Positions 1 through 39,497 of a DNA stretch of 39,497 bases are shown in pieces. The translations under genes were made by a program, and so were the position numbers. The notes under the pieces were generated by a model. It was not told the DNA's origin, ran no database searches, and was given only the letters and a program-made list of their open reading frames with translations. The stretch's first letter is position 1, and each line of letters begins with the position of its first letter. Source of the stretch: a virus. The stretch lies in UHGV virus genome UHGV-0087833; one strand, written 5' to 3'.

Positions 1-37
1 GTAACAGAGGGTTTTGTTCATTCATAGTGCAGGGTCA

Positions 38-54
38 AATCATTCCCACTCAAT
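38..54. repeat. att core, left copy (AATCATTCCCACTCAAT)
   Basis: Exact 17-bp match to 39444-39460; flanking bases differ on both sides. Confidence 0.8.
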
Positions 55-141
55 TATTTACGACACACATAACCAATTGACTGATAACAACTTTCTGCAA
101 CCTGATTTTCGCCGTACCGTTTTATATACCGTCACCGGAAA

Positions 142-6989: not shown

Positions 6990-7009
6990 AAGCACATCAG
7001 GAGTTTTCC

Positions 7010-7726: not shown

Positions 7727-7727
7727 T

Positions 7728-7739
7728 GTGACATGTCAC
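7728..7739. repeat. Perfect palindrome GTGACATGTCAC (copy 1 of 3)
   Basis: 12-bp perfect palindrome between lipoprotein stop and terminator hairpin. Confidence 0.8.
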
Positions 7740-7742
7740 GAC

Positions 7743-8156: not shown

Positions 8157-8165
8157 TGTTGTTCC

Positions 8166-10640: not shown

Positions 10641-10645
10641 TTAAT

Positions 10646-19372: not shown

Positions 19373-19416
19373 TCCTGCAATAAAGGGGCCGAAGCCCCTT
19401 GTCTGATACGCGAGGC

Positions 19417-19752: not shown

Positions 19753-19762
19753 CGATATCCCC

Positions 19763-20200: not shown

Positions 20201-20251
20201 CTTCTTTCTCCATTAGTGGGTCTGTTACGACCCACTGGTTAATAACAGGCG

Positions 20252-21244: not shown

Positions 21245-21252
21245 TTCCTCTC

Positions 21253-21954: not shown

Positions 21955-22247
21955 TCCTGTTCACTGGCCTCTTTGGCCATCTTCAAATACTGTTCAGGGC
22001 AATGCGCCATAACGCGCTGAAACAGTTCCAGCGCCAGATTGCGTTGCCCCTCATTAAATGCCATTGCCATAGCGTCCATCGGTGAGATAGCGGAAAACAC
22101 ACGGCCTTTCTCCAGCACCGACCAGACAACGCGACGCCCCTGTTCACTGCTCATGACAAAGCGAATGTCATCAATTTCACGCTGTGCCATGTCACGTTGC
22201 TTACGGGCGTTTTCTTCTTTCAGTTGATCATCTTCGTAATCTGTCAT
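21951..22247 (-). CDS. Hypothetical head morphogenesis protein
   Basis: 98 aa, overlaps portal stop and scaffold start. Confidence 0.4.
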   Translation of the reverse strand: MTDYEDDQLKEENARKQRDMAQREIDDIRFVMSSEQGRRVVWSVLEKGRVFSAISPMDAMAMAFNEGQRNLALELFQRVMAHCPEQYLKMAKEASEQE

Positions 22248-23923: not shown

Positions 23924-23937
23924 TTCAATGACTCCGG

Positions 23938-24144
23938 TTACTGACCAAGCAGCGTTTTACCGCTGGTATTAGCGGTTGATGTGTCGCCCTGAGAACCGGT
24001 AAGCAGCGTAGAACTACGACCAGCAGCAGCGCGACGGCGACGTGTTTCTTCGTCGCGGGCATCAACAACGGCGGCATCCTGCTCCTGTGGTGCTGCCTGA
24101 ACTTCTGGTGTTGCAGGCACTGATGGTGAGCTACCCATGCACAT
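23938..24144 (-). CDS. Small hypothetical protein upstream of portal
   Basis: 68 aa, low-complexity, GC-rich; GGAG RBS; could be non-coding. Confidence 0.3.
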   Translation of the reverse strand: MCMGSSPSVPATPEVQAAPQEQDAAVVDARDEETRRRRAAAGRSSTLLTGSQGDTSTANTSGKTLLGQ

Positions 24145-24234
24145 ATCAATGACTCCGTACGCAATTAAATCATTACCAATTTAACCACATATGATTTATT
24201 TATCGTAGAATGTTGACATTTAACGCGTGAATTA

Positions 24235-24249
24235 TTACCTTTCAGGTAA
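24235..24249. promoter_or_regulatory. Operator palindrome TTACC-tttca-GGTAA (site 4) next to TTGACA
   Basis: Perfect inverted repeat; TTGACA at 24213-24218. Confidence 0.55.
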
Positions 24250-24571
24250 CTAAAGAGCTCATTCTGGTTACTAACCTGACTGGCTTGTCGTTAAATTAAA
24301 CAGGTGGAGTGAGCTTTTATTTTGAGCAGTACGGCGTATGGCACATGCGCCGATAGCGGTCTGGATACGTTTAAGGGGCACCCTCCCTTGCTCGGGCAAA
24401 CGAACCAGGTAGCCGGAATGTGCAAGTCGAGCGGTTTTATTCCGCGCACGGGGATTCACCATCCCGGCGATTCGGTGTGACGCCTCGGAAGAGACGAGGG
24501 TACAACGATGAGAGCATTTATGGAGCCGCGACAAAGTGTGGCGCCTTAACAGGCTAAGTGCTCTCAGCGTT

Positions 24572-24648
24572 GTGGCATTAGCTCAGTCGGACAGAGCAAC
24601 CGCCTTCTAAGCGGTTGGTCGCAGGTTCGAATCCTGCATGCCACGCCA
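24572..24648 (+). tRNA. tRNA-Arg (anticodon UCU, reads AGA)
   Basis: 7-bp acceptor stem GTGGCAT/ATGCCAC, T-loop GGTTCGAATCC, anticodon loop CTTCTAA, encoded CCA. Confidence 0.9.
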
Positions 24649-24846
24649 GAATCACGCCTAAGGACCGTGATGCCAGAAGTTCCAGGGGCTTGGCGGTGAT
24701 GGTTTCCCTTGAAGGACTATCACCGCCCTTTTTACAGCAGGACGCCATTGCGATGACTTCATGCTGTAAACCCGTACAGCCACGGAAGGCATAACTCATT
24801 GCTTCCAGTTCGCCCGGTTCGCCGGGCATTTTTTTAAGGTGAGATT

Positions 24847-25218
24847 ATGAACGACAAGCAAATCGAAAAAGAAATCGTTGAGAAAGGCAAAACGGCACCG
24901 CGCGTTACGCCAGACCATATCGAAGGCATTATTGCTCAGGAGGCATATTTCACAGCAGAAGATGGTGCCTTTGGCAAAGCCATAAAAGCGAAACATACTG
25001 GCGGAGAGGTAAACTACCAGCCGCACGAATCACTTTCTCTGCTGACGTTCTGCGTCCTGGTGCTGCGCAACGGCTTCACCGTCACCGGAGAGAGCGCCTG
25101 TGCAAGCCCGGAAAACTTTGATGCAGAAATTGGTCGGAAGATTGCCCGGCAGAATGCTGTAAACAAAATCTGGATGCTCGAAGGTTACTTGCTGAAGCAG
25201 AAGCTAAGCGAGCAATAA
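24847..25218 (+). CDS. Phage protein, Gp49-like
   Basis: 123 aa with AAGGTGAG RBS; family assignment from memory. Confidence 0.5.
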   Translation: MNDKQIEKEIVEKGKTAPRVTPDHIEGIIAQEAYFTAEDGAFGKAIKAKHTGGEVNYQPHESLSLLTFCVLVLRNGFTVTGESACASPENFDAEIGRKIARQNAVNKIWMLEGYLLKQKLSEQ

Positions 25219-25222
25219 CACC

Positions 25223-25234
25223 GTGACATGTCAC
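25223..25234. repeat. Perfect palindrome GTGACATGTCAC (copy 2 of 3)
   Basis: Sits 4 bp after the Gp49-like stop and 4 bp before terminator hairpin. Confidence 0.8.
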
Positions 25235-25238
25235 AAAC

Positions 25239-25265
25239 AGCCAGCCGATGAGCTGGCTTTGTTTT
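25239..25265 (+). terminator. Rho-independent terminator of the tRNA / Gp49-like unit
   Basis: AGCCAGC-cgatga-GCTGGCT followed by TTGTTTT. Confidence 0.7.
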
Positions 25266-25308
25266 ATCCTCATCAGAGGATATCAACGACATTATCCCCA
25301 CCAGCGGA

Positions 25309-26784
25309 TTAAGCATAGGGATCGTAATCTGTGATGGCCTTGCCTTGCTGGTTCTGCTGCCCGGGAATTCGCAGACGCTTCGACACAGGGAACGCAAACG
25401 TCAGCAGTAGCGCATCGCCTTTACCAGGCGAACGCCCAAGCCGCTCCTTGATATCTTCCTTCGGTTCGATAACGATTTTACCGTCCACTCGAACTTTGTA
25501 CTCTGCCGCCGACAGATCGTCCGCTGTTTCCTGGTCATCCAGCATCCCGCCCAGCCTCAGCCATGTCTTGCATGAGTTGAACATCTCCCCACGCTTGTTG
25601 AGCATCTGCTGGTCAGTAGACGCGCCACCGAACGGAACAAGTTGCCATGTACGACCCCAGCCGTCACCGATTGACTTCAAACCGGTTCCGTAACCGAAGT
25701 CGATGAACACCGCGTCAGCCTGATACTGGTCTTCAAAGTCAGCGATACGCTTCGCCATAATCAGATCGTCGGTAGTCTTGTTGCCAGTCCACAGCACCTT
25801 ACTGTGTAGCCCCTGCCGCAGGTATATCACAGCGTCATCAACGCCGGAGTATGCCGGGTCAACGCCGATTATCACCGGAGCATGTGCAACCTGCGCAGCG
25901 GTGACCACCCGTTTCATTGCCTCGTCAGTAAGTCCGGTAGGGATAAACTGCAATTCAGATGCATCCGGGAATATGCCGCGCACACGGATTTTAACGAAGT
26001 CGCTGTCTTCCCCGTAGTCATCAACCCATTTCTGCAACTGCTGTTTGTTAGTGCCTTCCACCGTCCGGCTGTCAATCTGCGCAGTTTTCCAGCGGTGTTT
26101 ATATTTGCGGAAACATTCGCGGAAACGCCCGGTGTTACGTGTAGGGTTTCCGAACGCCACCCAGATAATCTCAGTGTCTTCGTCCGTAAGCGCACCCTCA
26201 GCAACTTCCCACACCAGATCCGCAATGTTCGACGCTTCATCGAATACCACGATGATGCGTTTGCGCTCGTTGTGTAGTCCGGCGAATGCCTCAGTGTTGT
26301 GCTCAGACCAGGGGATTGCGTCAGCTCGCCACCGCTTGTCGTGCCCAGGATCATTGCTGTACATCGCGGTAGCGGTACAGGTAAACCAGTCTTTCGTGAT
26401 AGCAAGGTTCGACCACTTGATAATTTCCGGCCAGGTCTTCGTTCGTAGCTGGTTGTCGGTGTTGGCGGTCACCACGACCTTACAATCCTCGCAAGTGGAC
26501 ATGCCCCAGTTGATCAGCATTGAGATGAATGCGGATTTACCAATACCGTGACCAGAAGCGCGTGCCAGCATAAGCGGCTGATAGCGCGTCGCTGGATTCT
26601 GCAGGTGATCACGTATCTCTCGGAACGCATCAGCCTGCCACTGACGTGGGCCGGTAGCATGTGCCAGTTCAGTCCCTTCTTCCCCCCACGGGAACGCATA
26701 GAGGGCATAGCCAAGCGGATCGTGAGTGAACCCTGCAATATCCTCGATCAACTGCTCTTCAGGAGATAACGCTGTATCTGTCAC
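25309..26784 (-). CDS. Terminase large subunit
   Basis: 491 aa; Walker A-like ASGHGIGKS; acidic nuclease-type C-terminal half. Confidence 0.9.
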   Translation of the reverse strand: MTDTALSPEEQLIEDIAGFTHDPLGYALYAFPWGEEGTELAHATGPRQWQADAFREIRDHLQNPATRYQPLMLARASGHGIGKSAFISMLINWGMSTCEDCKVVVTANTDNQLRTKTWPEIIKWSNLAITKDWFTCTATAMYSNDPGHDKRWRADAIPWSEHNTEAFAGLHNERKRIIVVFDEASNIADLVWEVAEGALTDEDTEIIWVAFGNPTRNTGRFRECFRKYKHRWKTAQIDSRTVEGTNKQQLQKWVDDYGEDSDFVKIRVRGIFPDASELQFIPTGLTDEAMKRVVTAAQVAHAPVIIGVDPAYSGVDDAVIYLRQGLHSKVLWTGNKTTDDLIMAKRIADFEDQYQADAVFIDFGYGTGLKSIGDGWGRTWQLVPFGGASTDQQMLNKRGEMFNSCKTWLRLGGMLDDQETADDLSAAEYKVRVDGKIVIEPKEDIKERLGRSPGKGDALLLTFAFPVSKRLRIPGQQNQQGKAITDYDPYA

Positions 26785-27377
26785 TGATTGCCATCCTGAC
26801 GTTCTTTCAGTCTCTTCCTGGCTGCCGCTATGCGATCAGCAATTGTCACATTCACATTAACATCCAGGCGTTCTTTGAACGCGTTGACATCAACATGCTT
26901 ACCAATCAGCTCAAGGTTCTTCACCTTGTCAGGCCATTTAATTTTTTTGAGGATTGTCTCTATCGAATCCTCGTTCATGTTCATGATGGTCGATGACAGA
27001 TCAAAGCCGCTAAGCGTAGTGCGCCAGATTTTCGGCCACTCACGGATTGGTTTAAGGCTCCCATCGTCGTTGAGGATGTCGATCACGTCCATCTGGTCGA
27101 TCTCCACCAGGCGCATGAGAACGTAATCAGCACTGACGCGCATTCGTTTGTTGCGCTCCTCCATCAACTCGGCAATCCGTTTTTGAATGCGTTCATCGCG
27201 CATCATGACACTAGCTTTAACTGCCGCTGTATTTGGAGAGAATCCTGCGTTAATCGCTGCCTGAGTCTGATTTTCAGGCGTTTTGATGTATGACTGGCAA
27301 TAAGCCTCCTGCATTGCTGTTAGTGGCTTAAATTGCGTTGATTTGCGTTTATAGGTTTTAGGTTCAGCAGGCATCAT
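26781..27377 (-). CDS. Terminase small subunit
   Basis: N-terminal LTAMQEAYCQSYIKTPENQTQAAINAGFSP motif; start at ATG 27377 (GGTGG RBS). Confidence 0.8.
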   Translation of the reverse strand: MMPAEPKTYKRKSTQFKPLTAMQEAYCQSYIKTPENQTQAAINAGFSPNTAAVKASVMMRDERIQKRIAELMEERNKRMRVSADYVLMRLVEIDQMDVIDILNDDGSLKPIREWPKIWRTTLSGFDLSSTIMNMNEDSIETILKKIKWPDKVKNLELIGKHVDVNAFKERLDVNVNVTIADRIAAARKRLKERQDGNQ

Positions 27378-27384
27378 AACCACC

Positions 27385-27416
27385 GTGGTAATAGTTACCG
27401 TTGTGGTAATAGTACC
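27385..27416. repeat. Tandem repeat GTGGTAATAGT(T)ACC x2 just upstream of terS
   Basis: Two near-identical 14-15-bp copies, each an internal GGTAA-tag-TTACC palindrome. Confidence 0.6.
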
Positions 27417-27420
27417 ATGC

Positions 27421-27446
27421 AAAATAAAGCCGCCATAGTTGGCGGC
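27421..27446 (-). terminator. Rho-independent terminator upstream of terS on the late-operon strand
   Basis: GCCGCCA-acta-TGGCGGC followed on the minus strand by TTTATTTT. Confidence 0.6.
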
Positions 27447-27487
27447 AGTATTCAAAACCCATCAAATTCATCATGCATAATCTACTC

Positions 27488-27499
27488 GTGACATGTCAC
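27488..27499. repeat. Perfect palindrome GTGACATGTCAC (copy 3 of 3)
   Basis: Overlaps stop codon of the 113-aa gene, about 40 bp before the terminator. Confidence 0.8.
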
Positions 27500-27837
27500 A
27501 CTATTAATTTCGTTTCATGCCAGCCTTTAGTCACCCAGCATTGTGAGTCACCATTACACGGACATGAATTAACTGGAACTCTCTCGCCGCACTTACCGCA
27601 ACGTTTTCTGCTGATCGATTTTATACGCCCGCGCACGCGTGCATCATCCTGGCGGATCAGTAACGCTATATACTCACCAAATTCGTAAGGCGCACGCCCG
27701 GGGCGACGCGTGGCACAGTTACGCTCCAGCATTTCAATTTCCTGAGCATCAAGCACAATTTCCAGCTTACGCACACCAGATGCAGCTTGTCTGGCTCTCT
27801 GAGCGGCTTTGCGCTCTGCTGCTGATTTAGCCATCAA
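27496..27837 (-). CDS. Cys-rich putative regulator in the Q-equivalent position
   Basis: 113 aa; basic N-terminus, C-terminal CGKCGERVPVNSCPCNGDSQCW cluster; last early gene before the late-operon terminator. Confidence 0.4.
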   Translation of the reverse strand: MMAKSAAERKAAQRARQAASGVRKLEIVLDAQEIEMLERNCATRRPGRAPYEFGEYIALLIRQDDARVRGRIKSISRKRCGKCGERVPVNSCPCNGDSQCWVTKGWHETKLIV

Positions 27838-30020: not shown

Positions 30021-30637
30021 TGGTTGCCTCCTTTGCGAAGCTGGGCAGCAAAGTCAACTAACCACTCAGTCATTTCAACCTTCCCTACCAGGTCTGAACC
30101 AGGGTGCATACAGCAATCACTCTGCGCCGCTTTGAAATCCTTATACTCATATTCTTGGGCCACCAGATTTTTTGCAGCTTCTATAGCAGCATCTACCCCC
30201 TGCGCACGCACTTCAGCCAGGAAAGCGTCGGTGGCTGGGGTTTCAACACGGATGCTGTCGCGCAAGATGAAAAATGCATTGAGCATTCCTGTCTCTGGCA
30301 CTTCATCCTGATGCTTCTCATACGCATCAAGAGCCTTCATCATCTCAGCTCCGAATGGTTGAGGGTGCACAGACTTCAGCTCCGCATTCTCCGCCGCAAG
30401 CGCTGAAAACTTCTCGTGTGCCAACTTAACAGCTGCATCAGCCTGCTTAATTGACTCAATCGCTTTCTGCTGGTCTTCGGCCAGCGCATTAGCACGCACC
30501 AGTTGCACTTCCAGTTGCGTTGCCAAATCGCTGATCAGCTTTGCCACACTGCGCATATCAACGGCACCACATTCTGCTTTCAGTTCCGAAGCCATCTCAT
30601 GCCCGGCGGCAACTAACCCTTTGATATTACTTTCCAT
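30017..30637 (-). CDS. Hypothetical coiled-coil protein (Ea22-like)
   Basis: 206 aa, Ala/Glu-rich helical. Confidence 0.4.
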   Translation of the reverse strand: MESNIKGLVAAGHEMASELKAECGAVDMRSVAKLISDLATQLEVQLVRANALAEDQQKAIESIKQADAAVKLAHEKFSALAAENAELKSVHPQPFGAEMMKALDAYEKHQDEVPETGMLNAFFILRDSIRVETPATDAFLAEVRAQGVDAAIEAAKNLVAQEYEYKDFKAAQSDCCMHPGSDLVGKVEMTEWLVDFAAQLRKGGNQ

Positions 30638-30698
30638 CTTTACCCTCGCTTATCCACATAACTTATTGATTACATTGATAACTAAAAAGATCGTCGAT

Positions 30699-31043
30699 TC
30701 AGAACTCTTCGATTTTCCAGCCACCACCTGCTTTCTTTGGCTTAACCGTTACCCCGATGATTCGGAACGGATACTGATCTGCGGCGACTTTGGTTTTCAC
30801 CCTGGCGTCGTCGGTCCAGAAACCTTTCACTTCGTGCAGTTCCATCTCGCCGGTGGCGAGCATCACAGCGAAATCTGGCGTATAGAACGTGTTGTCAGCT
30901 AACCGCAGCTTGATACCCTCGAATCGATACCAGGCTATTTCCCCTGCACGTTTACGCTGCTCAAGGTGCTGGCAATACGCAGATTCTGTTTTGTTCATCT
31001 GGCCTGTTTTGAGTCGACCAAGAGCCTGTATCTGTTTTCTCAT
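30699..31043 (-). CDS. DUF1064-like putative nuclease
   Basis: 114 aa downstream of replication genes; family from memory. Confidence 0.45.
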   Translation of the reverse strand: MRKQIQALGRLKTGQMNKTESAYCQHLEQRKRAGEIAWYRFEGIKLRLADNTFYTPDFAVMLATGEMELHEVKGFWTDDARVKTKVAADQYPFRIIGVTVKPKKAGGGWKIEEF

Positions 31044-31046
31044 GAT

Positions 31047-31061
31047 TTACCTCTGAGGTAA
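31047..31061. promoter_or_regulatory. Operator palindrome TTACC-tctga-GGTAA (site 5), 3 bp from the start codon
   Basis: On the coding strand reads TTACCTCAGAGGTAAATCATG; right half coincides with the SD-like GAGGT. Confidence 0.55.
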
Positions 31062-31108
31062 TTAAAAACCACATAAGACACGAAATCAATAGAGTTTAGA
31101 ATATTTTA

Positions 31109-31123
31109 TTACCTAACAGGTAA
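31109..31123. promoter_or_regulatory. Operator palindrome TTACC-taaca-GGTAA (site 6)
   Basis: Perfect inverted repeat in the 117-bp gap between P-like and DUF1064-like genes. Confidence 0.55.
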
Positions 31124-31160
31124 TTATTGAGGCGTAAAAAAATGCGCTATCGCGCTGGTA

Positions 31161-31961
31161 TTACTTGATAAATCCTGCCGCCTTTCCCCGCCTGTATTCC
31201 TCCATCAGCCACTGCGCCGGTGTTATTCCCCCAAGGGTGGCGGCGTTAGGCATGCACCCGAAACTTCGCCCTGGTGGATGGTAAACGTCTCTCCCTGTGT
31301 CCGGAGGTGTACTCATGGGCTCTGGCTTTGCCTGTATGCTGATCACCGGATCGGGTATCTGCTGTCCGGAAGCCACCTTTTTCGCCCAATCATCGAGCAG
31401 CCTGCGTGCGTGTTTCTCAACCTCAATCTCGCTAAGCTGGCGCTGATACATTGCACGGCGGGTATCACATACGACCCAGTACATAACCGGATGCCGCCAC
31501 GGGAATCTTTCGGGACCACCAGGATATAAACTTTTTTCCTTGCTGTACCGGTGAAACTCCGCCATCACATCGTCAATGGTGACGCCAAGAACCATCTTGC
31601 TGTCTTTGCACCACTTGATAAATTGCCCTGGAGACGGCCAGAACGGAGATTCACTGGCGCGGGCGTGGCGCATACCAGCAGAAACCTGTTCACGGGTTCG
31701 GATCCCACCTTCGGCAAACGCAGCAATCCACTGCTGTTTTGCAGCGACTTCCTGCTCTGGCGTCTTCAGGTTGGTTACCACTGCCGCCGGAAACAGTTGT
31801 TTCAGCTGTTTGAAAAGGGCATCAACAAGCCTCTCTGCTGACATGTTCACCACGTTGTCATTGTTGGTGTACTGATGCTCATAACCTGACATGCGAGAAA
31901 GGGCTTCTCCGTCACGGTTTTGTATCGCGGTAAAAACGTTGTTCACAAGAAATCCTCCCAT
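31161..31961 (-). CDS. Replication protein P-like (helicase loader)
   Basis: Matches lambda P as recalled (NAGMRVAR / FLPSPGQFVAWC vs SAGMRHAR / FWPSPGQFIKWC). Confidence 0.75.
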   Translation of the reverse strand: MGGFLVNNVFTAIQNRDGEALSRMSGYEHQYTNNDNVVNMSAERLVDALFKQLKQLFPAAVVTNLKTPEQEVAAKQQWIAAFAEGGIRTREQVSAGMRHARASESPFWPSPGQFIKWCKDSKMVLGVTIDDVMAEFHRYSKEKSLYPGGPERFPWRHPVMYWVVCDTRRAMYQRQLSEIEVEKHARRLLDDWAKKVASGQQIPDPVISIQAKPEPMSTPPDTGRDVYHPPGRSFGCMPNAATLGGITPAQWLMEEYRRGKAAGFIK

Positions 31962-32758
31962 GCTTCAGGGCTGTTCCAGTGCGGAACGTTGTTATCAGGT
32001 AATGTTGATTGCTTCTGTCTGCTAATCTGCAGCCGCCTTGCCAGCTTCTGCTCCCACTGTGCCTGATGGTATGCCTTACCCTCAGCCATCCAGTAAATTC
32101 TGAACTCTGCAAGTTCCTGTGCCGTTGGCAGACTGTCCAGGTAGATCCCCTGCAATGAGCTTTTCCGAAGAAAGTCATCTGATGGCTGCCATTGTTCATG
32201 CATGACAAATTTGCCTAATTGCCCTGGCCCACCAGGAGGAACAAAGTTATTCATCACGGCGTTGTTTGCGCTGGGGTCATGATGCACAGAATCCCCGTTT
32301 TTTGTCCTGCTCTCCCTCTCTTGGTTAAATGACTGGTTATATGACTGGTTCTGGATCCCGTTTTTGGGATCATTCAACATCCCGTTTTTGGGATCATTCA
32401 ACATCCCGTTTTTGGGTATATTCCCGTTTTCGGTAACATTACCGTTTTCGGGTTCATTGCCCCCCTCCCGGTTGCCTTTAATGTTCCCGTTTTTGGTTAT
32501 ATTAAGAGAGAAAACCCGCACTCTTTTCGTCGCTCCCTTTCTCTCTCCGGTATCTGAAATAAGCCCCATTTTCATGAGCGATATAAGCCCGGCCTGTACG
32601 GTTTTTTTATTCAGGCAAGTGTCTTTAACGAGGCGTTCTATGCTGGGATAGCAGAGGTTATATTCATCGGCTCTGTCAGCCATCGAAAGCAGTATGAGCT
32701 TTAATGACGAGCTACCTGGATCTGTCTCCCAGGCCCAATCTGTTGCATGTCTGCTCAT
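31943..32758 (-). CDS. Replication initiator, O-like (N-terminal winged-helix, internal iteron-encoded repeats)
   Basis: Repetitive peptide (NGN.. / KNGMLNDP x2) encoded by DNA iterons; upstream of P-like gene. Confidence 0.7.
   Translation of the reverse strand: MSRHATDWAWETDPGSSSLKLILLSMADRADEYNLCYPSIERLVKDTCLNKKTVQAGLISLMKMGLISDTGERKGATKRVRVFSLNITKNGNIKGNREGGNEPENGNVTENGNIPKNGMLNDPKNGMLNDPKNGIQNQSYNQSFNQERESRTKNGDSVHHDPSANNAVMNNFVPPGGPGQLGKFVMHEQWQPSDDFLRKSSLQGIYLDSLPTAQELAEFRIYWMAEGKAYHQAQWEQKLARRLQISRQKQSTLPDNNVPHWNSPEAWEDFL
32355..32503. repeat. Replication origin iterons (about 6-7 copies of ATCCCGTTTTTGGGATCATTCAAC-like unit)
   Basis: Two perfect 24-bp copies then degenerate copies; GATCCC-N6-GGGATC internal symmetry; inside O-like gene. 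Confidence 0.7.
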
Positions 32759-32773
32759 GATTAATCTCCGCTA

Positions 32774-32974
32774 TCAGCTTGAATGTTGTGGGGAGGAATT
32801 AATCATGATCTGCTTAATCTCTGCCCTGATGCGACGGTTTGATTCCATGGTGCACTCAACGCAGTGTCCGTTGTAAACCCAGCGTTCACTGTCATGTCCG
32901 TGCTTACATGGTTTTCCGGTGTAGTAGCGTTTAAGTCCGCGCTTTGCGGCATCAATACGTGTAATGATTTCCAT
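32774..32974 (-). CDS. Small Cys/His protein (putative zinc-binding), start uncertain
   Basis: YTGKPCKHGHDSERWVYNGHCVECT motif; ATG 32974 has AGGG RBS; ORF could extend to 33037. Confidence 0.45.
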   Translation of the reverse strand: MEIITRIDAAKRGLKRYYTGKPCKHGHDSERWVYNGHCVECTMESNRRIRAEIKQIMINSSPQHSS

Positions 32975-33054
32975 GGTAAGCCCTGTTATTAGTATTGGGA
33001 TTACGGTCATTTTGTGCTGACACAAAAAAAAGATCAACCAGATTTGGTTTTTTA

Positions 33055-33069
33055 TTACCTTTGAGGTGC
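33055..33069. promoter_or_regulatory. Imperfect operator TTACC-tttga-GGTGC (site 7)
   Basis: One half-site degenerate; between Cro-like gene and next early gene. Confidence 0.4.
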
Positions 33070-33083
33070 GAATAGATATGAAA

Positions 33084-33103
33084 AGACCGCCGGATGGCGG
33101 TCT
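33084..33103 (-). terminator. Hairpin after the Cro-like gene (tR1-like candidate, weak T tract)
   Basis: AGACCGCC-ggat-GGCGGTCT; on the minus strand followed only by TTTCAT. Confidence 0.35.
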
Positions 33104-33124
33104 ACAGAGGGTTGCGGCTGGATA

Positions 33125-33355
33125 TCATGAGTAGAAGAAGTATGCCAGTTCTGCTTTTGAGCGCAGCCATTGTCTTGATTTACAGGCTTTAAAAAGCCCA
33201 TTCATCAATACCTTACCTGGCATTTTGCGCTTACCTGTTAAGTGAGTCTGGATATAGTGACTCGTCGTTCCGGCTTCCTGTGCGAAGGCTTCACGCTCAT
33301 CCGGAGTAAGTGCAAGCCAGTGCTTTTTGAAATCGAAATGTCCGTTATCGCTCAT
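33125..33355 (-). CDS. Cro-like HTH protein, first gene of rightward lytic operon
   Basis: 76 aa; HTH-like AFAQEAGTTSHYIQTHL; divergent from repressor across the operator cluster. Confidence 0.55.
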   Translation of the reverse strand: MSDNGHFDFKKHWLALTPDEREAFAQEAGTTSHYIQTHLTGKRKMPGKVLMNGLFKACKSRQWLRSKAELAYFFYS

Positions 33356-33391
33356 AGCTATTGCCTGATATTTATTTCAGATAATAAATAT

Positions 33392-33406
33392 TCACCTATA
33401 AGGTAA
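33392..33406. promoter_or_regulatory. Operator TCACC-tataa-GGTAA (site 8, OR-like cluster)
   Basis: Near-perfect palindrome in the divergent intergenic region. Confidence 0.55.
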
Positions 33407-33422
33407 CAAAAATCAAGGATAG

Positions 33423-33437
33423 TTACCCATGAGGTGC
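33423..33437. promoter_or_regulatory. Operator TTACC-catga-GGTGC (site 9, OR-like cluster)
   Basis: Imperfect palindrome 17 bp from site 10. Confidence 0.5.
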
Positions 33438-33439
33438 AT

Positions 33440-33454
33440 TTACCTGTTGGGTAA
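33440..33454. promoter_or_regulatory. Operator TTACC-tgttg-GGTAA (site 10, OR-like cluster)
   Basis: Perfect palindrome about 55 bp upstream of the repressor start. Confidence 0.6.
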
Positions 33455-33509
33455 TATTGCTTTAAATTGAATCATCTTCTGATTCAGATATGAGGCGATT
33501 TTCCAGAAA

Positions 33510-34094
33510 ATGAAAAGTATCCAGGACGTCCGCAGGCAAAATCTCAACGACTTGATCGACCGTGAATTCAATGGTGTTCAGACGCGGATGGCTGAAAAAC
33601 TTGGAACTCAGGCAAATCTGGTAAACCGCTGGGCTCTTGGCAAGAAGGTTATCGGCGACCAGGTTGCGCGAAAAATTGAAGCTGCCGCCAATAAACCCCG
33701 TAACTGGCTTGATATCGATCGCTCGCTTTCTCAGGAAGGTTTTCAGCCTGTCGGACCAAGCGACATTGGTCAACTGGCGGCTCACAACCTGGAACGCTGG
33801 ATGAGCGAAAGCCGCGACCTTTCAACGCAGGGAAAACTTCACCGCGCATCCGGCGTCGCCCAGGTAACAATCAGCCGCCTGTTAAACAATGAGGTCAGCG
33901 TTTCCATTTCCACCCTGGAGAATGTTGCATCCGCATTTGGGCGTCACGGATATGAATTACTGATTCACCCGCACGACCCCGCGACTATCAACTATGACCG
34001 CTCGCGCTACGCATTGTTACCTGAAACAGAGAAGGCAAAGATCGAAAGTTACATTGAATTTGTCATCAACCAGAACGAAAAAAATAAACAATAA
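33510..34094 (+). CDS. Prophage repressor candidate, tandem HTH_XRE domains, no S24 peptidase domain
   Basis: Two HTH-like segments (QTRMAEKLGTQANLVNRW and HRASGVAQVTISRLL); no Ser/Lys autocleavage module; position equals lambda cI. Confidence 0.6.
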   Translation: MKSIQDVRRQNLNDLIDREFNGVQTRMAEKLGTQANLVNRWALGKKVIGDQVARKIEAAANKPRNWLDIDRSLSQEGFQPVGPSDIGQLAAHNLERWMSESRDLSTQGKLHRASGVAQVTISRLLNNEVSVSISTLENVASAFGRHGYELLIHPHDPATINYDRSRYALLPETEKAKIESYIEFVINQNEKNKQ

Positions 34095-34116
34095 AATCAT
34101 ATTTTTCAGTAAGTAA

Positions 34117-34138
34117 GCCGCCTTCTGGCGGCTTTTTT
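34117..34138 (+). terminator. Rho-independent terminator after the repressor gene
   Basis: GCCGCC-ttct-GGCGGC followed by TTTTTT. Confidence 0.8.
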
Positions 34139-34151
34139 ATTGCTTATTTGA

Positions 34152-34166
34152 TTACCTAACGGGTAA
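34152..34166. promoter_or_regulatory. Operator TTACC-taacg-GGTAA (site 11, OL-like)
   Basis: Perfect palindrome upstream of TTGACA at 34186-34191. Confidence 0.6.
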
Positions 34167-34213
34167 TTTTTTTAACTCATATCTATTGACATCAAACCAA
34201 ATACGCATAATCA

Positions 34214-34228
34214 TTACCTCAACGGTAA
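34214..34228. promoter_or_regulatory. Operator TTACC-tcaac-GGTAA (site 12, OL-like) at the leftward-operon promoter
   Basis: Perfect palindrome downstream of TTGACA; extra GGTAA half-site at 34237. Confidence 0.6.
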
Positions 34229-34247
34229 CAGACCGAGGTAACAAGTT

Positions 34248-34400
34248 ATGCAGTGGAAAATCATCAACGGTTGGTACTGCGTTACTGCATGCGGATTCAT
34301 GAGCTGGAAGTTCCGCACCTTACAGGAAGGCATCAAGTGGGCTTTCGTCAGCAAAGAAGCTCGCGATGTGGCCAACGATAACGAGATATGGGAGGGCTGA
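34248..34400 (+). CDS. Small hypothetical protein, first ORF of the leftward-type operon
   Basis: 50 aa; GAGGT 8 nt before ATG; below ORF-track cut-off. Confidence 0.3.
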   Translation: MQWKIINGWYCVTACGFMSWKFRTLQEGIKWAFVSKEARDVANDNEIWEG

Positions 34401-34402
34401 TA

Positions 34403-34702
34403 ATGAACGTTAATCAGCAGAAAAATCTTCAAAAAATCATGCTGGCATTCGACAAGGACTACCGCCTGTCAGAACAGCTATATGACCGACAAGTTGAACT
34501 GATTGAGAGCATCCGACTTCATCAACTGTCCTCAACTTTCGACGTTGTAACAGGCAAAGGCGTTCGTCAGGAAGTACTGGAGGCTGCTAAAGACAGCCCT
34601 GAGTTCGAAGAACTGATGGATGCCTATCGGCGAGAGGCAATGGCAATTATCGCCCGCTGGGATCTGGCGGATCAGCTTGATGGACAGAGGGACGCGGCAT
34701 GA
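34403..34702 (+). CDS. Hypothetical protein upstream of exonuclease
   Basis: 99 aa from ATG 34403 (GGAGGG RBS); stop overlaps exonuclease start (ATGA). Confidence 0.5.
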   Translation: MNVNQQKNLQKIMLAFDKDYRLSEQLYDRQVELIESIRLHQLSSTFDVVTGKGVRQEVLEAAKDSPEFEELMDAYRREAMAIIARWDLADQLDGQRDAA

Positions 34703-35520
34703 AACCGGGAATTTATTTCGACATCAGCAACGAAGACTACCACGCCGGTGACGGCGTGAGTAAGTCGCAACTGGACATGGTTGCCAAGAATCCGGCGCTT
34801 CTTAAATGGGTTCAGGCAGCACCAGAAGACGAAGAGAAAAAGTCTGCACTGGATATGGGAACCGCATTGCACTGTCTGCTTCTGGAGCCTGGAGAGTTCG
34901 ACAAACGCTTCATTGTTTCACCGAAATTCGATCGTCGGACGAAACAAGGTAAAGCTGACGAAGAGGCATTTCTTCGTGATGTGGCGGATATGGGGATTAC
35001 GGTACTTGATGCCGAGCAGTGGCGGAAACTGGAGCTGATGCGTGATAGCGCAATGGCTCATCCGGCGGCACGCTGGATGTTGGAAGCACCTGGTTACTGC
35101 GAAGCATCAATGTACTGGAACGATGAAGAGACGGGTGAGTTGTGCCGAATTCGTCCAGACAAATGGCTGAACGAGCACAACGTGATCGTCGACGTGAAAA
35201 AGGTTGCAGATATGGACCGTTTTGCACGCCACATCGAGGAATTCCGCTACCACGTGCAGGACGCAATGTACCGCGAAGGCGCAATGAGGGTTACTGGTCA
35301 GCCGCATGGTTTTTTCTTTCTTGCCGTGAGCGAAAGCATTGATTGTGGTCGCTATCCGGTACGCGTGTTCGAGCTGGATGCGCAGGATGTCGATGCCGGG
35401 CACGCTCTGTTCCGCCGGGATCTGAATACCTATCACGAATGCCGCATCAATGATGAATGGGGCGGTGTGGAAATCATTAAACGCCATGAGTGGGCACGCA
35501 AACAGGATATGTACATATGA
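34699..35520 (+). CDS. PD-(D/E)XK-type recombination exonuclease (partner of RecT)
   Basis: 273 aa, translationally coupled to RecT-like gene; family from motif recall. Confidence 0.65.
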   Translation: MKPGIYFDISNEDYHAGDGVSKSQLDMVAKNPALLKWVQAAPEDEEKKSALDMGTALHCLLLEPGEFDKRFIVSPKFDRRTKQGKADEEAFLRDVADMGITVLDAEQWRKLELMRDSAMAHPAARWMLEAPGYCEASMYWNDEETGELCRIRPDKWLNEHNVIVDVKKVADMDRFARHIEEFRYHVQDAMYREGAMRVTGQPHGFFFLAVSESIDCGRYPVRVFELDAQDVDAGHALFRRDLNTYHECRINDEWGGVEIIKRHEWARKQDMYI

Positions 35521-36458
35521 GCAACGACATCGTAAACATCAACGCACCAGTAGACACAGCAATCGCTGGAACTGCTGCAACTATTTTCAGCCCAGACGGC
35601 TTGAACCAACTGATGAAATTCGCCGAGGTAATGGCGCAAAGCCGCGTAACGGTACCGGCGCACCTCGCCGGGAAACCAGCTGATTGCATGGCCGTGGCAA
35701 TGCAGGCTGCGCAGTGGGGAATGAACCCGTTTGCCGTGGCTCAGAAAACCCATGTTGTGAACGGCACGCTAGGTTATGAAGCCCAATTAGTAAACGCAGT
35801 TATCTCAACGATGTCGCCAACAAAAGATCGCATCAACTACGAGTGGTTCGGGCCGTGGGAACGCGTGATCGGTAAGTTTGTTGAGAAAACATCCAAAAAC
35901 GGCAATCCATATATCGCACCAGGCTGGACTCTAAAAGACGAAGAAGGCTGCGGTGTTCGCGTATGGGCAACCATGAAGGGCGAGGATCAACCTCGAGTGC
36001 TTGAGTTAATGCTGTCTCAAGCACAGGTAAGAAACTCCACACTTTGGGCCAGTGATCCGAAACAACAACTCGCATACCTTGCGACAAAACGCTGGTCTCG
36101 CTTGCACTGTCCTGACGTAATCATGGGCGTCTACACACCAGACGAATTACAGGAAACGGCACCGCGCGTTGAGCGAGACATTACTCCGCAAACGACCACT
36201 GCTGCGGGAATGAACAGTCTGATCAACGCTAAACCAGTGAAAAAGCCTGATGAGCAAACGCGTAAAGCGGATAGCCGTGATCCAGAAGAAATGCTGATGG
36301 CCTTTACCAGCGCAGCGATGAATTACAGCACTGTCTCCGAACTGGATAAGGCTTACAAATACATTGCACAAAAACTTTCAGATGATGACGAACTGCTGGC
36401 AAAAGCCACCGACGTTTACAGCGTTCGTCGGGAAGAATTAAACGAAACATCTATGTAA
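35517..36458 (+). CDS. recT: RecT-family single-strand annealing protein
   Basis: 313 aa from ATG 35517 (ATGA overlap with exonuclease stop). Confidence 0.7.
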   Translation: MSNDIVNINAPVDTAIAGTAATIFSPDGLNQLMKFAEVMAQSRVTVPAHLAGKPADCMAVAMQAAQWGMNPFAVAQKTHVVNGTLGYEAQLVNAVISTMSPTKDRINYEWFGPWERVIGKFVEKTSKNGNPYIAPGWTLKDEEGCGVRVWATMKGEDQPRVLELMLSQAQVRNSTLWASDPKQQLAYLATKRWSRLHCPDVIMGVYTPDELQETAPRVERDITPQTTTAAGMNSLINAKPVKKPDEQTRKADSRDPEEMLMAFTSAAMNYSTVSELDKAYKYIAQKLSDDDELLAKATDVYSVRREELNETSM

Positions 36459-36507
36459 CCACCACCGCGGCGCCACGCGCGCCGCACTGCAACCAAGAGA
36501 GGTATTT

Positions 36508-36756
36508 ATGAAAGGTGCATTAGGTAAGAAGGAACTCCTGGCGGTGGTGCCACTGTCATGGAGCACTATCGACCGTATGGAGCGCGCAGGGGAATTTCCT
36601 AAACGCTGGTATATCACCGATAAACGCTGCGCATGGAACCGTGATGAAGTTGAGCGTTGGCTTGATGAACGTCAGGCAGCAAGCCCGGCAGAGTTCCAGG
36701 GTAAAAAACCTCCTGTTCAGCAACGTGTATATCGTCCTGTGAGCAACGCTGCATGA
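36508..36756 (+). CDS. AlpA-family HTH protein, excisionase candidate
   Basis: STIDRMERAGEFPKRWYITDKRCAWNRDEVERWL matches AlpA/Xis-type HTH; GAGAGG RBS. Confidence 0.6.
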   Translation: MKGALGKKELLAVVPLSWSTIDRMERAGEFPKRWYITDKRCAWNRDEVERWLDERQAASPAEFQGKKPPVQQRVYRPVSNAA

Positions 36757-36865
36757 GTGCGCTGCTAAGGCACTGGAGCAAATGGTCAGGATGGTACTTA
36801 TTCCTGGCCTCTGTTTCAGCATGGCTTTATCTGCTGGCATTAATTTTCAGATAGGGTTGGATTAA

Positions 36866-37165
36866 GTGAGAAAGTTAAGCCGACTTGAAAAATATCACAT
36901 GAACAAGGTTTCAATGCGCAGCCCTTCAAAGGTTGTTGCCGTTACTCCTGCGGCGATAGAGATCGAAAAACGCGCGATTGAAAGAGAGAAAAAAGGGCAG
37001 TTCCGCATTGCCGCCCACCTTTGGCTTCAGTGTATGGATGTTGCTTCTGGTGATGTTGAGCGTGCAAGGATCGCGGTTCGCAGGGACCAATGTATCACAA
37101 AAGGTAACGGCCTTCGCCGTGGCGACTATAGCGGCATAGGATGTTGTGGGGTGGTTTATGACTAA
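36866..37165 (+). CDS. Hypothetical protein
   Basis: 99-aa ORF overlapping methyltransferase start; start codon uncertain. Confidence 0.3.
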   Translation: MRKLSRLEKYHMNKVSMRSPSKVVAVTPAAIEIEKRAIEREKKGQFRIAAHLWLQCMDVASGDVERARIAVRRDQCITKGNGLRRGDYSGIGCCGVVYD

Positions 37166-37808
37166 GAAATACACACTAATCTATGCAGATCCACCCTGGG
37201 TATACCGGGACAAAGCCGCAGATGGTAATCGCGGTGCCGGTTTTAAATATCCGGTTATGAGTGTGCTGGATATCTGCCGCCTTCCTGTGTGGGATTTGGC
37301 CGATGAAAACTGTCTGTTGGCCATGTGGTGGGTGCCAACACAACCACTCGAAGCACTAAAAGTTGTTGAAGCCTGGGGATTCCGTCTGATGACCATGAAG
37401 GGCTTCACGTGGATAAAATGTGGTAGTCGACAACCAGATAAACTGGTTATGGGTATGGGACACATGACTCGCGCCAATAGTGAAGATTGCCTGTTTGCAG
37501 TAAAGGGAAAACTACCTACGCGCATTAATGCAGGGATCGTTCAGTCATTTACCGCACCGCGGCTTGAGCATTCAAGAAAACCAGATATTGTTCGTGAAAA
37601 ACTTGTGCAATTGTTAGGCGATGTTTCTCGCATTGAACTGTTCGCCCGCCAGACGTCTCATGGCTTCGATGTTTGGGGTAATCAGTGCGAAGACCCGGCA
37701 GTGCAACTACACCCTGGATACGCGTTGGATATTGCCGGATTAACAAATGCATTCAGCAATGCTCCGCTGTCACCAACAGACAACCAGGGGCGGGAGCGTG
37801 CAGCATGA
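37158..37808 (+). CDS. MT-A70-family N6-adenine DNA methyltransferase (orphan)
   Basis: DPPW motif (LIYADPPWVY); no adjacent restriction gene. Confidence 0.75.
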   Translation: MTKKYTLIYADPPWVYRDKAADGNRGAGFKYPVMSVLDICRLPVWDLADENCLLAMWWVPTQPLEALKVVEAWGFRLMTMKGFTWIKCGSRQPDKLVMGMGHMTRANSEDCLFAVKGKLPTRINAGIVQSFTAPRLEHSRKPDIVREKLVQLLGDVSRIELFARQTSHGFDVWGNQCEDPAVQLHPGYALDIAGLTNAFSNAPLSPTDNQGRERAA

Positions 37809-37999
37809 ACAGGGCATCGCCAGCAGATTTAAGGAAATGCCTTGAAACTGCAAACATGCTTGCACACAGCGGGATCAGGTTTGTTCCAATTCCCGCTGTC
37901 ACTGATGCTGAATTTGCAACGCTGTCAGCAATATTCGCAGACAAAATTGAATCACTGGCAGCAGAAGCCGAGATGGAAGAAAATCAGCAGAACTATTAA
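37805..37999 (+). CDS. Small hypothetical protein
   Basis: 64 aa; ATGA overlap with methyltransferase stop; convergent with int. Confidence 0.4.
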   Translation: MNRASPADLRKCLETANMLAHSGIRFVPIPAVTDAEFATLSAIFADKIESLAAEAEMEENQQNY

Positions 38000-38002
38000 A
38001 CG

Positions 38003-39253
38003 TTATTCTCCCGCCATCCACTTCTCAAACTTCGACGGGGAGAACGGAATCAGATCCGTATGCTCCCCGTCAATCCAGGAATCAATCATATCGGCCCACT
38101 GCTGCAACATGTAGGCGCGCTGTCTGGCGTATTCCGCTTTGTTATATACGGCGCGCACACCTTTCTGCTCATGTGCCAGAGCCTTTTCAATCCAGTCTGA
38201 AGGATAACCAGCCTCATGCAACAACGTACTGGCTGTACGGCGCATATCATGTACGGTGAAGTCCTGAATATGCTCACCATCTTCATTTATTATTTTCACC
38301 GTTCTGTCGATCAGAGAGTTCAGCGCGGCATTAGATAATGGCTTCCGGAAATTGTAACGACCAGGAACCAGATATTCACTTCCACCAGCGCACATCTGCA
38401 ACCCAACCAATATATCCTGTGCCTGTTTAGGCAGGTAAATAACGTGCGCCCGGCTTCCCTTCATGCGGTCTGAAGGAATTGTCCATGTCCATTTTTTAAA
38501 ATCTATTTCATCCCACGTTGCATTGGTGAATTCGCCTTTACGAACCATAGTGATAAGCACCAGCTTTAAAGCCATTTTCATAGTGCCCATAGCACCAATG
38601 GCATCCAGCGTGCGGAAGAACAGGCCAATTTCTTCTGGTGTCAGTGTTCGCTCTCGTGGTTTAAATATGGCGATAGACGAAGGTTTAATGTCAGCCGCAG
38701 GATTAAACAAACCATGACCACGGTCATTGGCGTGACGGTATACGCTGCTGATGATCTCCCTGGCCTGTACTGCTGTTGCCCGACCACCGCGTTCGACAAT
38801 CCGGTCACACAAATCACGAACCATCGATGTGGTAATTTCAGCCATCATTTTGTTGCCAAGAACCGGAAGTATGTCACGGTCGATCACCGCCTGCTTCATT
38901 GCGCGGGTACTGTCAGCCAGGATGACGTGTTTCATATAACTGTCGGTATGTACCGCAAACGTCTCGGCACCACGAATCTTTTTGATACCGTCACGTTTAG
39001 CCGCAGCCGGTGACTGGCCTGCTTTAAGCAGCTTCTTTGCAGCAATCAGTTCTTCTCGCGCTTCTGCCAGGCTGATACCGTCACGCCCATACTGCCCGAT
39101 TACCAGTGTTTCGCGGCGACCGTTGATACGGTAGTCATAGCGAAACGAGACCGTGCCTGACGTAAGCACAGCTACATACAGCCCGTCACGATCGGAGACC
39201 TTGTACAGTTTGTCCTGCGGCTTGAGGTTTTTTAATTTTGTATCGGTAAGCAC
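38003..39253 (-). CDS. int: Tyrosine integrase
   Basis: 416 aa; C-terminal catalytic region (HDMRRTASTLLHEAGY...); GTG start with upstream in-frame stop; next to att core. Confidence 0.9.
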   Translation of the reverse strand: MLTDTKLKNLKPQDKLYKVSDRDGLYVAVLTSGTVSFRYDYRINGRRETLVIGQYGRDGISLAEAREELIAAKKLLKAGQSPAAAKRDGIKKIRGAETFAVHTDSYMKHVILADSTRAMKQAVIDRDILPVLGNKMMAEITTSMVRDLCDRIVERGGRATAVQAREIISSVYRHANDRGHGLFNPAADIKPSSIAIFKPRERTLTPEEIGLFFRTLDAIGAMGTMKMALKLVLITMVRKGEFTNATWDEIDFKKWTWTIPSDRMKGSRAHVIYLPKQAQDILVGLQMCAGGSEYLVPGRYNFRKPLSNAALNSLIDRTVKIINEDGEHIQDFTVHDMRRTASTLLHEAGYPSDWIEKALAHEQKGVRAVYNKAEYARQRAYMLQQWADMIDSWIDGEHTDLIPFSPSKFEKWMAGE

Positions 39254-39295
39254 AATTCACCCATATAGAAACCATTTTCATGACGGTATGAGAGT

Positions 39296-39310
39296 ATACC
39301 TTTAAGGTAA
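39296..39310. promoter_or_regulatory. Operator-like ATACC-tttaa-GGTAA (site 13) upstream of int, nested in a larger palindrome
   Basis: About 45 bp upstream of int start; flanked by GACGGTAT (39282-39289) and ATACCGTC (39310-39317). Confidence 0.45.
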
Positions 39311-39366
39311 TACCGTCACCTGTACCGCCGAAAAATATGGTGTAGAGTGAATAGAAATGAATACAT

Positions 39367-39397
39367 AAAAACAAAAACCCTCTGCAAAAACAGAGGG
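39367..39397 (-). terminator. Phage-supplied rho-independent terminator for host guaA
   Basis: CCCTCTG-caaaaa-CAGAGGG followed on the minus strand by TTTTTGTTTT; lies downstream of guaA stop and upstream of int. Confidence 0.7.
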
Positions 39398-39443
39398 TTG
39401 AGTTGGCATCTGAATAGGAATGATTTGCTATGAGTTAGCTGTT

Positions 39444-39460
39444 AATCATTCCCACTCAAT
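39444..39460. repeat. att core, right copy (AATCATTCCCACTCAAT), overlaps guaA stop codon
   Basis: Exact 17-bp match to 38-54; lies next to integrase gene. Confidence 0.8.
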
Positions 39461-39497
39461 AGTCGCTGGTGGCTTGCCGCTGATGTCATACACCACG
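39446..39497 (-). CDS. guaA: GMP synthase 3' end (partial, host gene)
   Basis: Reverse-complement translation gives ...VVYDISGKPPATIEWE-stop, matching the GuaA C-terminus as I recall it; stop TGA at 39446-39448. Confidence 0.75.
   Translation of the reverse strand, partial: VVYDISGKPPATIEWE

Follow-up and report, generated by a model that had tools for sequence, protein, structure and literature searches.

Architecture of the guaA-side attachment site and integrase leader of a phiV10/epsilon15-like prophage

The end of the virus genome UHGV-0087833 that adjoins guaA raises the question of how a temperate phage can insert at the 3' end of a host gene without spoiling it, and of what governs the integrase gene (int) that then stands immediately downstream. 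We examined the whole 39,497-nucleotide stretch of DNA (hereafter the window), with particular attention to the segment between guaA and int. Working from the letters alone, the first-pass annotation had proposed integration at the guaA 3' end, a stop codon and a terminator supplied by the phage, and a repressor-type site before an int gene with a GTG start. All of the sequence features that it listed were found in the window, with their coordinates slightly adjusted.

The prophage and its junction with guaA

The window is a complete phiV10/epsilon15-like (Uetakevirus) prophage. Its homology to virion genomes is nearly full-length and is limited by the two copies of the att core, with the first homologous base at exactly 38 and the last at exactly 39460, which assigns the element to Uetakevirus. 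Most of the window was collinear with phiV10 at 96-98% identity, with block 8163-27495 at 97% and block 30480-39460 at 98%. The int region was 98-99% identical to sequenced phage genomes (phiV10, TL-2011b, vB_EcoP_ZX5 and others), and the int-attP segments of phiV10 and ZX5 were 98% identical to that of the window. The differences from phiV10 fall in the tail fibre and O-antigen region and in part of the early region, whereas nothing of substance differs in the int-attP region. An identical 17-bp core, the same terminator, the arm sites and the GTG start are shared with phiV10, epsilon15 and vB_EcoP_ZX5. We consider it highly probable that a temperate podovirus of the phiV10/epsilon15 type has integrated at the last codons of E. 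coli guaA, and that the region under study is its integrase-side junction, made up of the core and the P' arm of attP.

Positions 39446..39497 on the minus strand hold the last 16 codons of host guaA and its TGA stop (39448..39446). They translate to VVYDISGKPPATIEWE*, the C-terminus of the GMP synthase GuaA, and are annotated as guaA in E. coli genomes. The 17-bp core AATCATTCCCACTCAAT lies across this gene end as the int-proximal copy (39444..39460), up to which the phage genomes match, and is duplicated at the other end of the prophage as the int-distal copy (38..54), where phage homology begins; the bases adjoining the two copies are unlike on either side. On the guaA strand the right-hand core reads ATT GAG TGG GAA TGA TT, which is the codons I-E-W-E, the stop and two further nucleotides. 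Since the integrase recombines a core that is common to phage and host, guaA retains its last four codons and its stop, and the phage replaces everything 3' of that stop, terminator included. The proposal of a phage-supplied stop was thus right in placing the stop within the right att copy, but the stop belongs to the 17 bp that phage and host have in common and is not specific to the phage.

Joining positions 1-54 to 39461-39497 reconstructed an empty site of 91 nt with 100% identity to E. coli genomes. Of 5426 complete E. coli genomes, 4566 contain it over 80% or more of its length, and another 547 genomes have the int-guaA junction of the window. The core attgagtgggaatgatt stands at both ends of the prophage, and attB is uninterrupted in prophage-free strains. 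Positions 1..37 (minus strand), identical to the empty-site sequence TGACCCTGCACTATGAATGAACAAAACCCTCTGTTAC, are host DNA. In the empty site this segment follows guaA and contributes the 5' half of the native guaA terminator; in the lysogen it stands downstream of the phage Rz gene. Comparison with an uninterrupted guaA locus, which the first-pass annotation had suggested, bore out integration at the guaA 3' end: the empty site shows exactly the predicted junction and the C-terminal peptide is that of GuaA, so that neither of the outcomes named as fatal to the proposal, a mismatched junction or a peptide foreign to GuaA, was encountered.

This site has been described before. In the description of vB_EcoP_ZX5, 190 bp separate the core attgagtgggaatgatt from the 5' end of int on the phage genome, and the host copy sits at the 3' end of guaA; its authors established attB, attL and attR by PCR and Sanger sequencing, and stated that the same sequence had already been proven to be the attP of phiV10 and epsilon15 (PMC9782041). 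The guaA integration site, the terminator and the GTG start of int are correct, and they are already published or annotated.

The int gene (38003..39253, minus strand) encodes a P4/SXT-type tyrosine integrase of the epsilon15 (guaA-targeting) cluster, whose members target the guaA 3' flank (PMC8138268; Smyshlyaev et al. 2021). We examined 39 integrase relatives from gamma-, beta- and alpha-proteobacteria, and in 29 of them a guaA gene of the same orientation ends 191-360 nt upstream of the integrase gene. The window has this arrangement as well, with int following the end of guaA in the same direction across a gap of 192 nt. At the guaA 3' end, GAGTGGGA is also the insertion point of the island GIsul2 (PMC9376610), and the epsilon15 integrase cluster, CMGI-3 included, has the same target, GAGTGGGA within the guaA end. 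Unlike the phage in the window, the members of that cluster are mostly genomic islands or ICE-like elements; the arm layout seen in the 29 relatives nevertheless matches that of the window (terminator hairpin, GACGGTA repeats, int).

An in-frame TGA two codons upstream of the int GTG makes an earlier start impossible, and the same start is given in the phiV10 record and by PGAP, in agreement with the GTG start first proposed. Among 11 epsilon15-like elements the int start codon was GTG in ten and TTG in one. The GTG is preceded by a weak Shine-Dalgarno-like GGGTG (39258..39262, minus strand) that was invariant in the alignment of epsilon15-like elements. Both features are consistent with low translation of int, which the combination of a weak ribosome-binding site and a non-ATG start would hold down.

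The terminator between guaA and int

A rho-independent terminator, phage-borne and annotated in both phiV10 and epsilon15, occupies 39366..39399 on the minus strand and consists of the stem AACCCTCTG/CAGAGGGTT, a loop and a T-run. Its hairpin, at 39399..39376 on the guaA/int strand, has a GC-rich stem of 9-10 bp and is followed by the tail TTTGTTTTT. The predicted fold was strong (-16.6 kcal/mol, z = -4.7), and none of 200 shuffled sequences folded as well. The element sits inside the prophage and is oriented with guaA towards int, as the first-pass annotation had it.

The hairpin is phage DNA. That it might be native host DNA was ruled out, as it occurs in virion genomes and the empty site has a terminator of its own at a different offset, the native one 25 nt and the phage one 45 nt from the core. 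The native guaA terminator, AAAACCCTCTG TTACTA CAGAGGGTTTTTT, shares its 9-bp stem with the phage terminator. Outside this hairpin, where 24 of 27 nt agree, the host flank and the phage arm showed no similarity; a longer captured host segment downstream of the core, which we also considered, was unsupported.

Once the phage genome is circular, this strand reads holin, endolysin, Rz/Rz1, att core, terminator and int (phiV10, epsilon15), and from this order the terminator would also end the lysis operon. In the window Rz ends at 142, and half of the native guaA terminator is visible at 1-25. Integration would therefore swap the terminators, with guaA receiving that of the phage and the lysis operon that of native guaA, and in the lysogen the predicted phage terminator would halt guaBA read-through before it reached int.

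Comparison with related loci bears on what the hairpin is for. In 23 of 29 loci, distant beta-proteobacterial elements among them, a hairpin and T-run begin 43-49 nt past the guaA stop, with at least 12 unrelated stems, each complementary; the element in the window thus combines a GC-rich stem-loop and a T-run with conservation of structure rather than of sequence. Because structure and position are kept while the stem sequence varies, there is good evidence, drawn from these alignments, that the hairpin is functional and positioned relative to guaA. It could be argued instead that the hairpin solely ends the phage lysis (late) operon and that the insulation of int from guaA is an accidental by-product of where the core lies. 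The gene order of phiV10 and epsilon15 does put the hairpin where late transcription would end before int in the replicating phage, but an accident of core position sits poorly with a constant offset from the guaA stop in elements whose stems are unrelated. Moreover, the identity of phage and native guaA stems in E. coli suggests that the phage hairpin either arose from a replacement guaA terminator or was favored as one, and the two roles are compatible with each other. We consider the exclusive lysis-operon role unlikely and favor a hairpin that serves guaA as well.

Putative arm-type sites in the integrase leader

Between the terminator and int lies the inverted repeat that had been reported with 8-bp arms and a nested operator-like palindrome. 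Repeat and inner palindrome are present, but the arms, TGACGGTAT at 39281-39289 and ATACCGTCA at 39310-39318, are perfect over 9 bp rather than 8. Only the inner palindrome is repressor-like, matching 10 of 12 consensus positions; the outer arms are copies of GTGACGGTAT, a repeat of the integrase arm type.

Five exact copies of GTGACGGTAT are present, at 126-135, 38732-38741, 38985-38994, 39075-39084 and 39310-39319, and a sixth, near-exact copy at 39280-39289 differs at one position; the chance expectation is about 0.08 exact copies (about 79,000 two-strand positions divided by 4^10). In the circular phage all six fall in the two arms, no more than about 800 bp away from the att core. The copy at 39310..39319 (minus strand) forms the right-hand arm of the inverted repeat, and its equivalent is annotated 'integrase' in epsilon15. 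The left-hand arm, recognised by sequence match, is an inverted arm-type site, ATGACGGTAT (39280..39289, plus strand), and most relatives have an inverted TACCGTC at the matching position. Three further copies fall inside the 5' part of int, at 39075-39084 and 38985-38994 on the minus strand and at 38732-38741 on the plus strand, and one is on the Rz side of attP (126..135, minus strand), where the equivalent is again annotated in epsilon15. The epsilon15 record marks this same 10-mer as 'integrase; integration' sites. A degenerate repeat, GGCGGTA, lies upstream (39322..39331, minus strand; the motif itself at 39323-39329), 12 nt before the next repeat; it is a decayed form of the upstream direct copy, and a perfect GACGGTA stands there in distant relatives and in a Klebsiella element.

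The repeat is not peculiar to this phage. Over the 29 guaA-linked relatives, which span three proteobacterial classes, GACGGTA/TACCGTC occurred at 14.0 per kb in the guaA-int gap and at 0.30 per kb elsewhere, a 47-fold enrichment. In many relatives a direct pair of copies spaced by 11-12 nt precedes an inverted one, even in cases where the sequence in between is unrelated. The pattern characteristic of the epsilon15 cluster, arm-type repeats on both sides of the core, was thus present at the level of sequence, and the repeats are putative Int sites. The outer inverted repeat is best read as a pair of integrase arm-type sites and not as an operator.

The epsilon15 GenBank record suggests a different role, as the equivalent 39 nt are marked there 'RNaseIII; mRNA processing', and the inverted repeat with its nested palindrome could form an RNA stem-loop, in int transcripts or in read-through ones, whose cleavage by RNase III controls the stability of int mRNA. 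The predicted RNA fold (-18.7 kcal/mol, z = -2.7) was equalled by 4 of 200 shuffles, and the few 3'-arm substitutions in relatives are A-to-G changes that would keep G-U pairs. The helix is, however, only about 9 + 4 bp long and interrupted, short of a helix of roughly 20 bp; typical RNase III substrates offer roughly two helical turns of helix. Four further copies of the arm sequence, distributed over both sides of the core and the int gene, are without a pairing partner, and relatives with unrelated intervening sequence still conserve GACGGTA, the core of the arm, as a motif. The alignment of relatives had no compensatory covariation, its columns being nearly invariant. If transcription starts after TATACT, the int mRNA would in any case lack the 5' arm of the hairpin. 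An RNase III site is quite improbable on this evidence, since the helix is short and interrupted, the arm motif recurs partnerless and compensatory changes are absent. An Rfam scan of 39100-39497 returned sub-threshold chance matches only.

Other elements of the arm were found on either side of the terminator. An inverted-repeat search recovered an imperfect inverted copy of the core, TGAATAGGAATGATT (39411..39425), which includes one CTATTCA repeat at 39411-39417 and is predicted to form with the core a 15-bp RNA stem (-21.2 kcal/mol, z = -4.4). A second CTATTCA lies on the int side of the terminator (39348..39354, minus strand) and is nearly invariant in the alignment of relatives, with six of its seven columns invariant and the seventh at least 90% conserved; it stands at conserved offsets in distant relatives. 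The direct repeat D11 (2178-2205 versus 39350-39377) is an A-rich run beside an unrelated hairpin and was judged to be chance. No match to the IHF consensus with up to one mismatch was found in the int-side arm. Three IHF-like sites lie at 48-86 in the other arm, and the window-wide count was not above chance.

Read from guaA towards int, the phage arm thus presents the inverted core copy, the terminator, the arm-type sites, a weak operator-like site, a weak ribosome-binding site and the GTG. The arm cluster comprises two direct copies one helical turn apart and one inverted copy, with the operator-like site between the last two.

The inner palindrome and the control of int

A perfect 13-bp palindrome, TACCTTTAAGGTA at 39297-39309, is nested in the inverted repeat. 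The repressor-operator-like site around it (39295..39311) reads ATTACC TTAAA GGTATA on the int strand; it shares 2 bp with an arm site and also overlaps the -10-like hexamer TATACT (39298..39293). The window has 12 occurrences of the motif TACCN5GGTA, where 0.18 would be expected, and 11 of ATTACC-N5-GGTAAT with up to one mismatch. A PWM was built from these 11 strong sites, which score 15.3-27.2 bits. Against it the int-proximal site scored 14.7 bits and ranked 13th in the window, a weak singleton. Hits of this quality are expected 0.165 times per shuffled window and about 5e-4 times in the 120-nt int leader.

The strong sites, mapped through phiV10, lie in the rep-cro gap, downstream of rep flanking the TTGACA early-left (PL) promoter, before the DUF1064 gene block (between the replication and late genes), at the terS start, before the portal operon, before the tail-fibre gene and before the antirepressor region. 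In the epsilon15 record the ATTACC-N5-GGTAAT consensus is annotated as 'repressor; lysogeny' sites. The proposed binder is the phage repressor Rep (33510..34094, plus strand), identified through the SPC32H repressor structure 5D50 (E = 4e-42). The half-sites and 5-bp spacer of the SPC32H and epsilon15 Rep operators match the site in the window, which encodes a Rep homologue; these statements on Rep operators draw on the epsilon15 GenBank annotation and on second-hand descriptions. The int-proximal site departs from them in having GGTATA where Rep operators have the GGTAAT half, and in being unpaired, whereas the operators of PL and those preceding the DUF1064 gene are paired at a spacing of 62 bp. 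A search for a partner 62 bp from the int site found only the half-site CTTACC (int codons 2-3), 61 bp away, which is unconvincing. The same int-proximal palindrome site is present in SPC32H. The palindrome was found only in epsilon15-like elements, and was absent from distant relatives that keep the arm sites.

No canonical sigma-70 promoter was predicted in the int leader of either the window or epsilon15. The sole candidate under relaxed spacing was GTGACG-15-TATACT (39319..39293), whose 15-bp spacer is suboptimal; its -35-like GTGACG is part of the arm site at 39310..39319, and its -10 and spacer lie inside the operator-like palindrome. The -10-like hexamer is TATAAT in epsilon15. A likely excisionase of the AlpA family (36508..36756, plus strand), named from the annotation of its phiV10 and epsilon15 homologues, belongs to the early-left operon. 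Because int converges on that operon, it must have a promoter of its own or rely on read-through, and the 'int promoter region' of the first-pass annotation was a reasonable inference. We propose that int would be transcribed from a weak promoter whose -35-like element is an arm site and whose -10-like TATACT lies inside the operator. With this overlap, Int itself could block the promoter, as KplE1 IntS and P4 Int do, and in the lysogen Rep probably could as well.

In KplE1 and P4 the integrase promoter lies in an att arm, where arm sites overlap it and Int and the excisionase repress it (PMC2951348). The att-overlapping integrase promoters of KplE1 (IntS/TorI) and P4 (Int/Vis) are negatively autoregulated (Panis et al. 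2010; Piazzolla et al. 2006). As in those elements, int in the window adjoins the core and points away from it, arm-type sites overlap the putative -35/-10, and the gene of the RDF (AlpA family) stands apart from int, outside its transcript. Unlike them, the target is a protein-coding gene and not a tRNA gene, and an additional repressor-type site lies between the arm sites. By analogy, the most likely and best-supported mechanism is a guaA-targeting attP architecture combined with the KplE1/P4 paradigm.

The inner palindrome may have no function as a repressor site, with int under Int and an AlpA-type excisionase only, as in KplE1/P4, and with the conservation of TACC...GGTA reflecting the -10 hexamer and the packing of arm sites. 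The site is a weak singleton with two mismatches to the consensus, and it is the deviant half, GGTATA, that gives rise to the -10-like hexamer (TATACT here, TATAAT in epsilon15). The epsilon15, phiV10 and SPC32H records do not annotate the int-proximal site as a repressor site, and Int/RDF autoregulation is enough for att-overlapping integrase promoters (Panis et al., PMC2951348). Set against this, the half-sites (ATTACC, GGTA) were invariant and four of the five spacer bases variable across 11 epsilon15-like elements from 8 genera, the signature of a dimeric DNA-binding site, and the low chance expectation for the int leader also argues against coincidence. Furthermore, int converges on the PL operon and would need an induction-responsive control of its own if Int rises on induction. 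On balance we regard a palindrome without repressor function as somewhat unlikely. That the inner palindrome is a repressor site is plausible from its conservation and its resemblance to Rep operators, and such a site would probably add a layer that couples int expression to the immunity state.

A more elaborate proposal is that in Uetakevirus lysogens Rep binds this weak operator wedged among the P'-arm sites, shuts the int promoter, competes with Int for the arm and so blocks assembly of the excision complex until Rep is dismantled by the antirepressor. We put it forward as a speculation with little likelihood of being correct; if true, immunity and the direction of recombination would be coupled on the DNA itself.

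The junction finding is correct but ordinary, as the attachment site is already published, and its value is mainly that of a positive control, in which a prophage end, an att core, a preserved gene end and a terminator were recognised from raw sequence alone. The only point perhaps not yet in the records is the conserved repressor-operator-like site between the integrase arm sites before int, a modest hypothesis. For the host, guaBA is essential and highly expressed, and the locus illustrates how an element inserts there without harm, by duplicating the last codons and stop and bringing its own copy of the terminator. The comparison of 29 relatives indicates that this layout is general for guaA-targeting integrases.

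Sequence elements around the att core

We analyzed the 17-bp att core and its surroundings at both ends of the prophage. Three overlapping matches to the IHF consensus, each with one mismatch, adjoin the int-distal core at 48-86, where the matches cluster at the position of the IHF sites annotated in the epsilon15 record; the window-wide count of such matches was not above chance. The same search, allowing at most one mismatch, found no match on the int side of att.

The terminator hairpin between the int-side core and int is flanked by direct repeats of CTATYS(A), located on the minus strand at 39411-39417 and 39348-39354 and resembling the left half of the att core (ACTATTGAG). Relatives among the gamma-, beta- and alpha-proteobacteria carry these repeats on either side of the terminator at identical offsets, +21, +31, +84 and +94 nt past the guaA stop in the compared loci L021, L024-L026, L030, L032, L035 and L044. 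On the forward strand, the density of the motif was 6.5 per kb, compared to a background of 1.3 per kb. The repeats resemble a second type of protein-binding site within the guaA-targeting attP family, possibly one for the AlpA-type excisionase.

At 39411-39425 the att core recurs in imperfect, inverted form, separated by 18 nt from its partner core segment at 39444-39458. The pair is predicted to fold into a 15-bp RNA stem around the guaA stop codon (-21.2 kcal/mol, z = -4.4), and the inverted copy is kept in part among the epsilon15-like relatives. This copy could be a core-type site, a site for an accessory protein or a 3' structure of the mRNA.

The guaA-int gap contains an identical 100-nt arm in L016 (Citrobacter sedlakii) and in L019 (Edwardsiella piscicida), elements whose hosts belong to separate genera, and guaA ends in GAA TAA rather than GAA TGA in both. 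The stop codon of this pair is outside the shared core and truly element-supplied.

Paired repressor operators

Pairs of repressor operators (ATTACC-N5-GGTAAT) at an exact spacing of 62 bp are present in both the window phage (34151-34167/34213-34229 and 31046-31062/31108-31124) and epsilon15 (L005; 32554/32616 and 35908/35970). A TTGACA -35 hexamer sits between the two operators of the pair at PL, the early-left operon promoter. The 62-bp pairing is consistent with a tetrameric repressor that would contact two sites.

Candidate origin, palindrome and differences from phiV10

Six iteron-like repeats (TCCCGTTTTTGGG...), each about 19 nt long and spaced 18-24 nt apart, lie at 32355-32503 within the ORF at 31943-32758; the array is probably a replication origin inside the replication-protein gene. 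The perfect 14-bp palindrome CGTGACATGTCACA is present in two exact copies and one close variant (25222-25235, 27487-27500 and 7727-7740), one of which coincides with the point where the linear phiV10 record begins and ends (position 27495 corresponds to phiV10 position 1).

phiV10 has no counterpart of segments 1978-5147 and 6733-8163, which span the tail-fibre/host-range and serotype-conversion regions and part of the antirepressor region, so the receptor or moron module of the window phage differs from that of phiV10.
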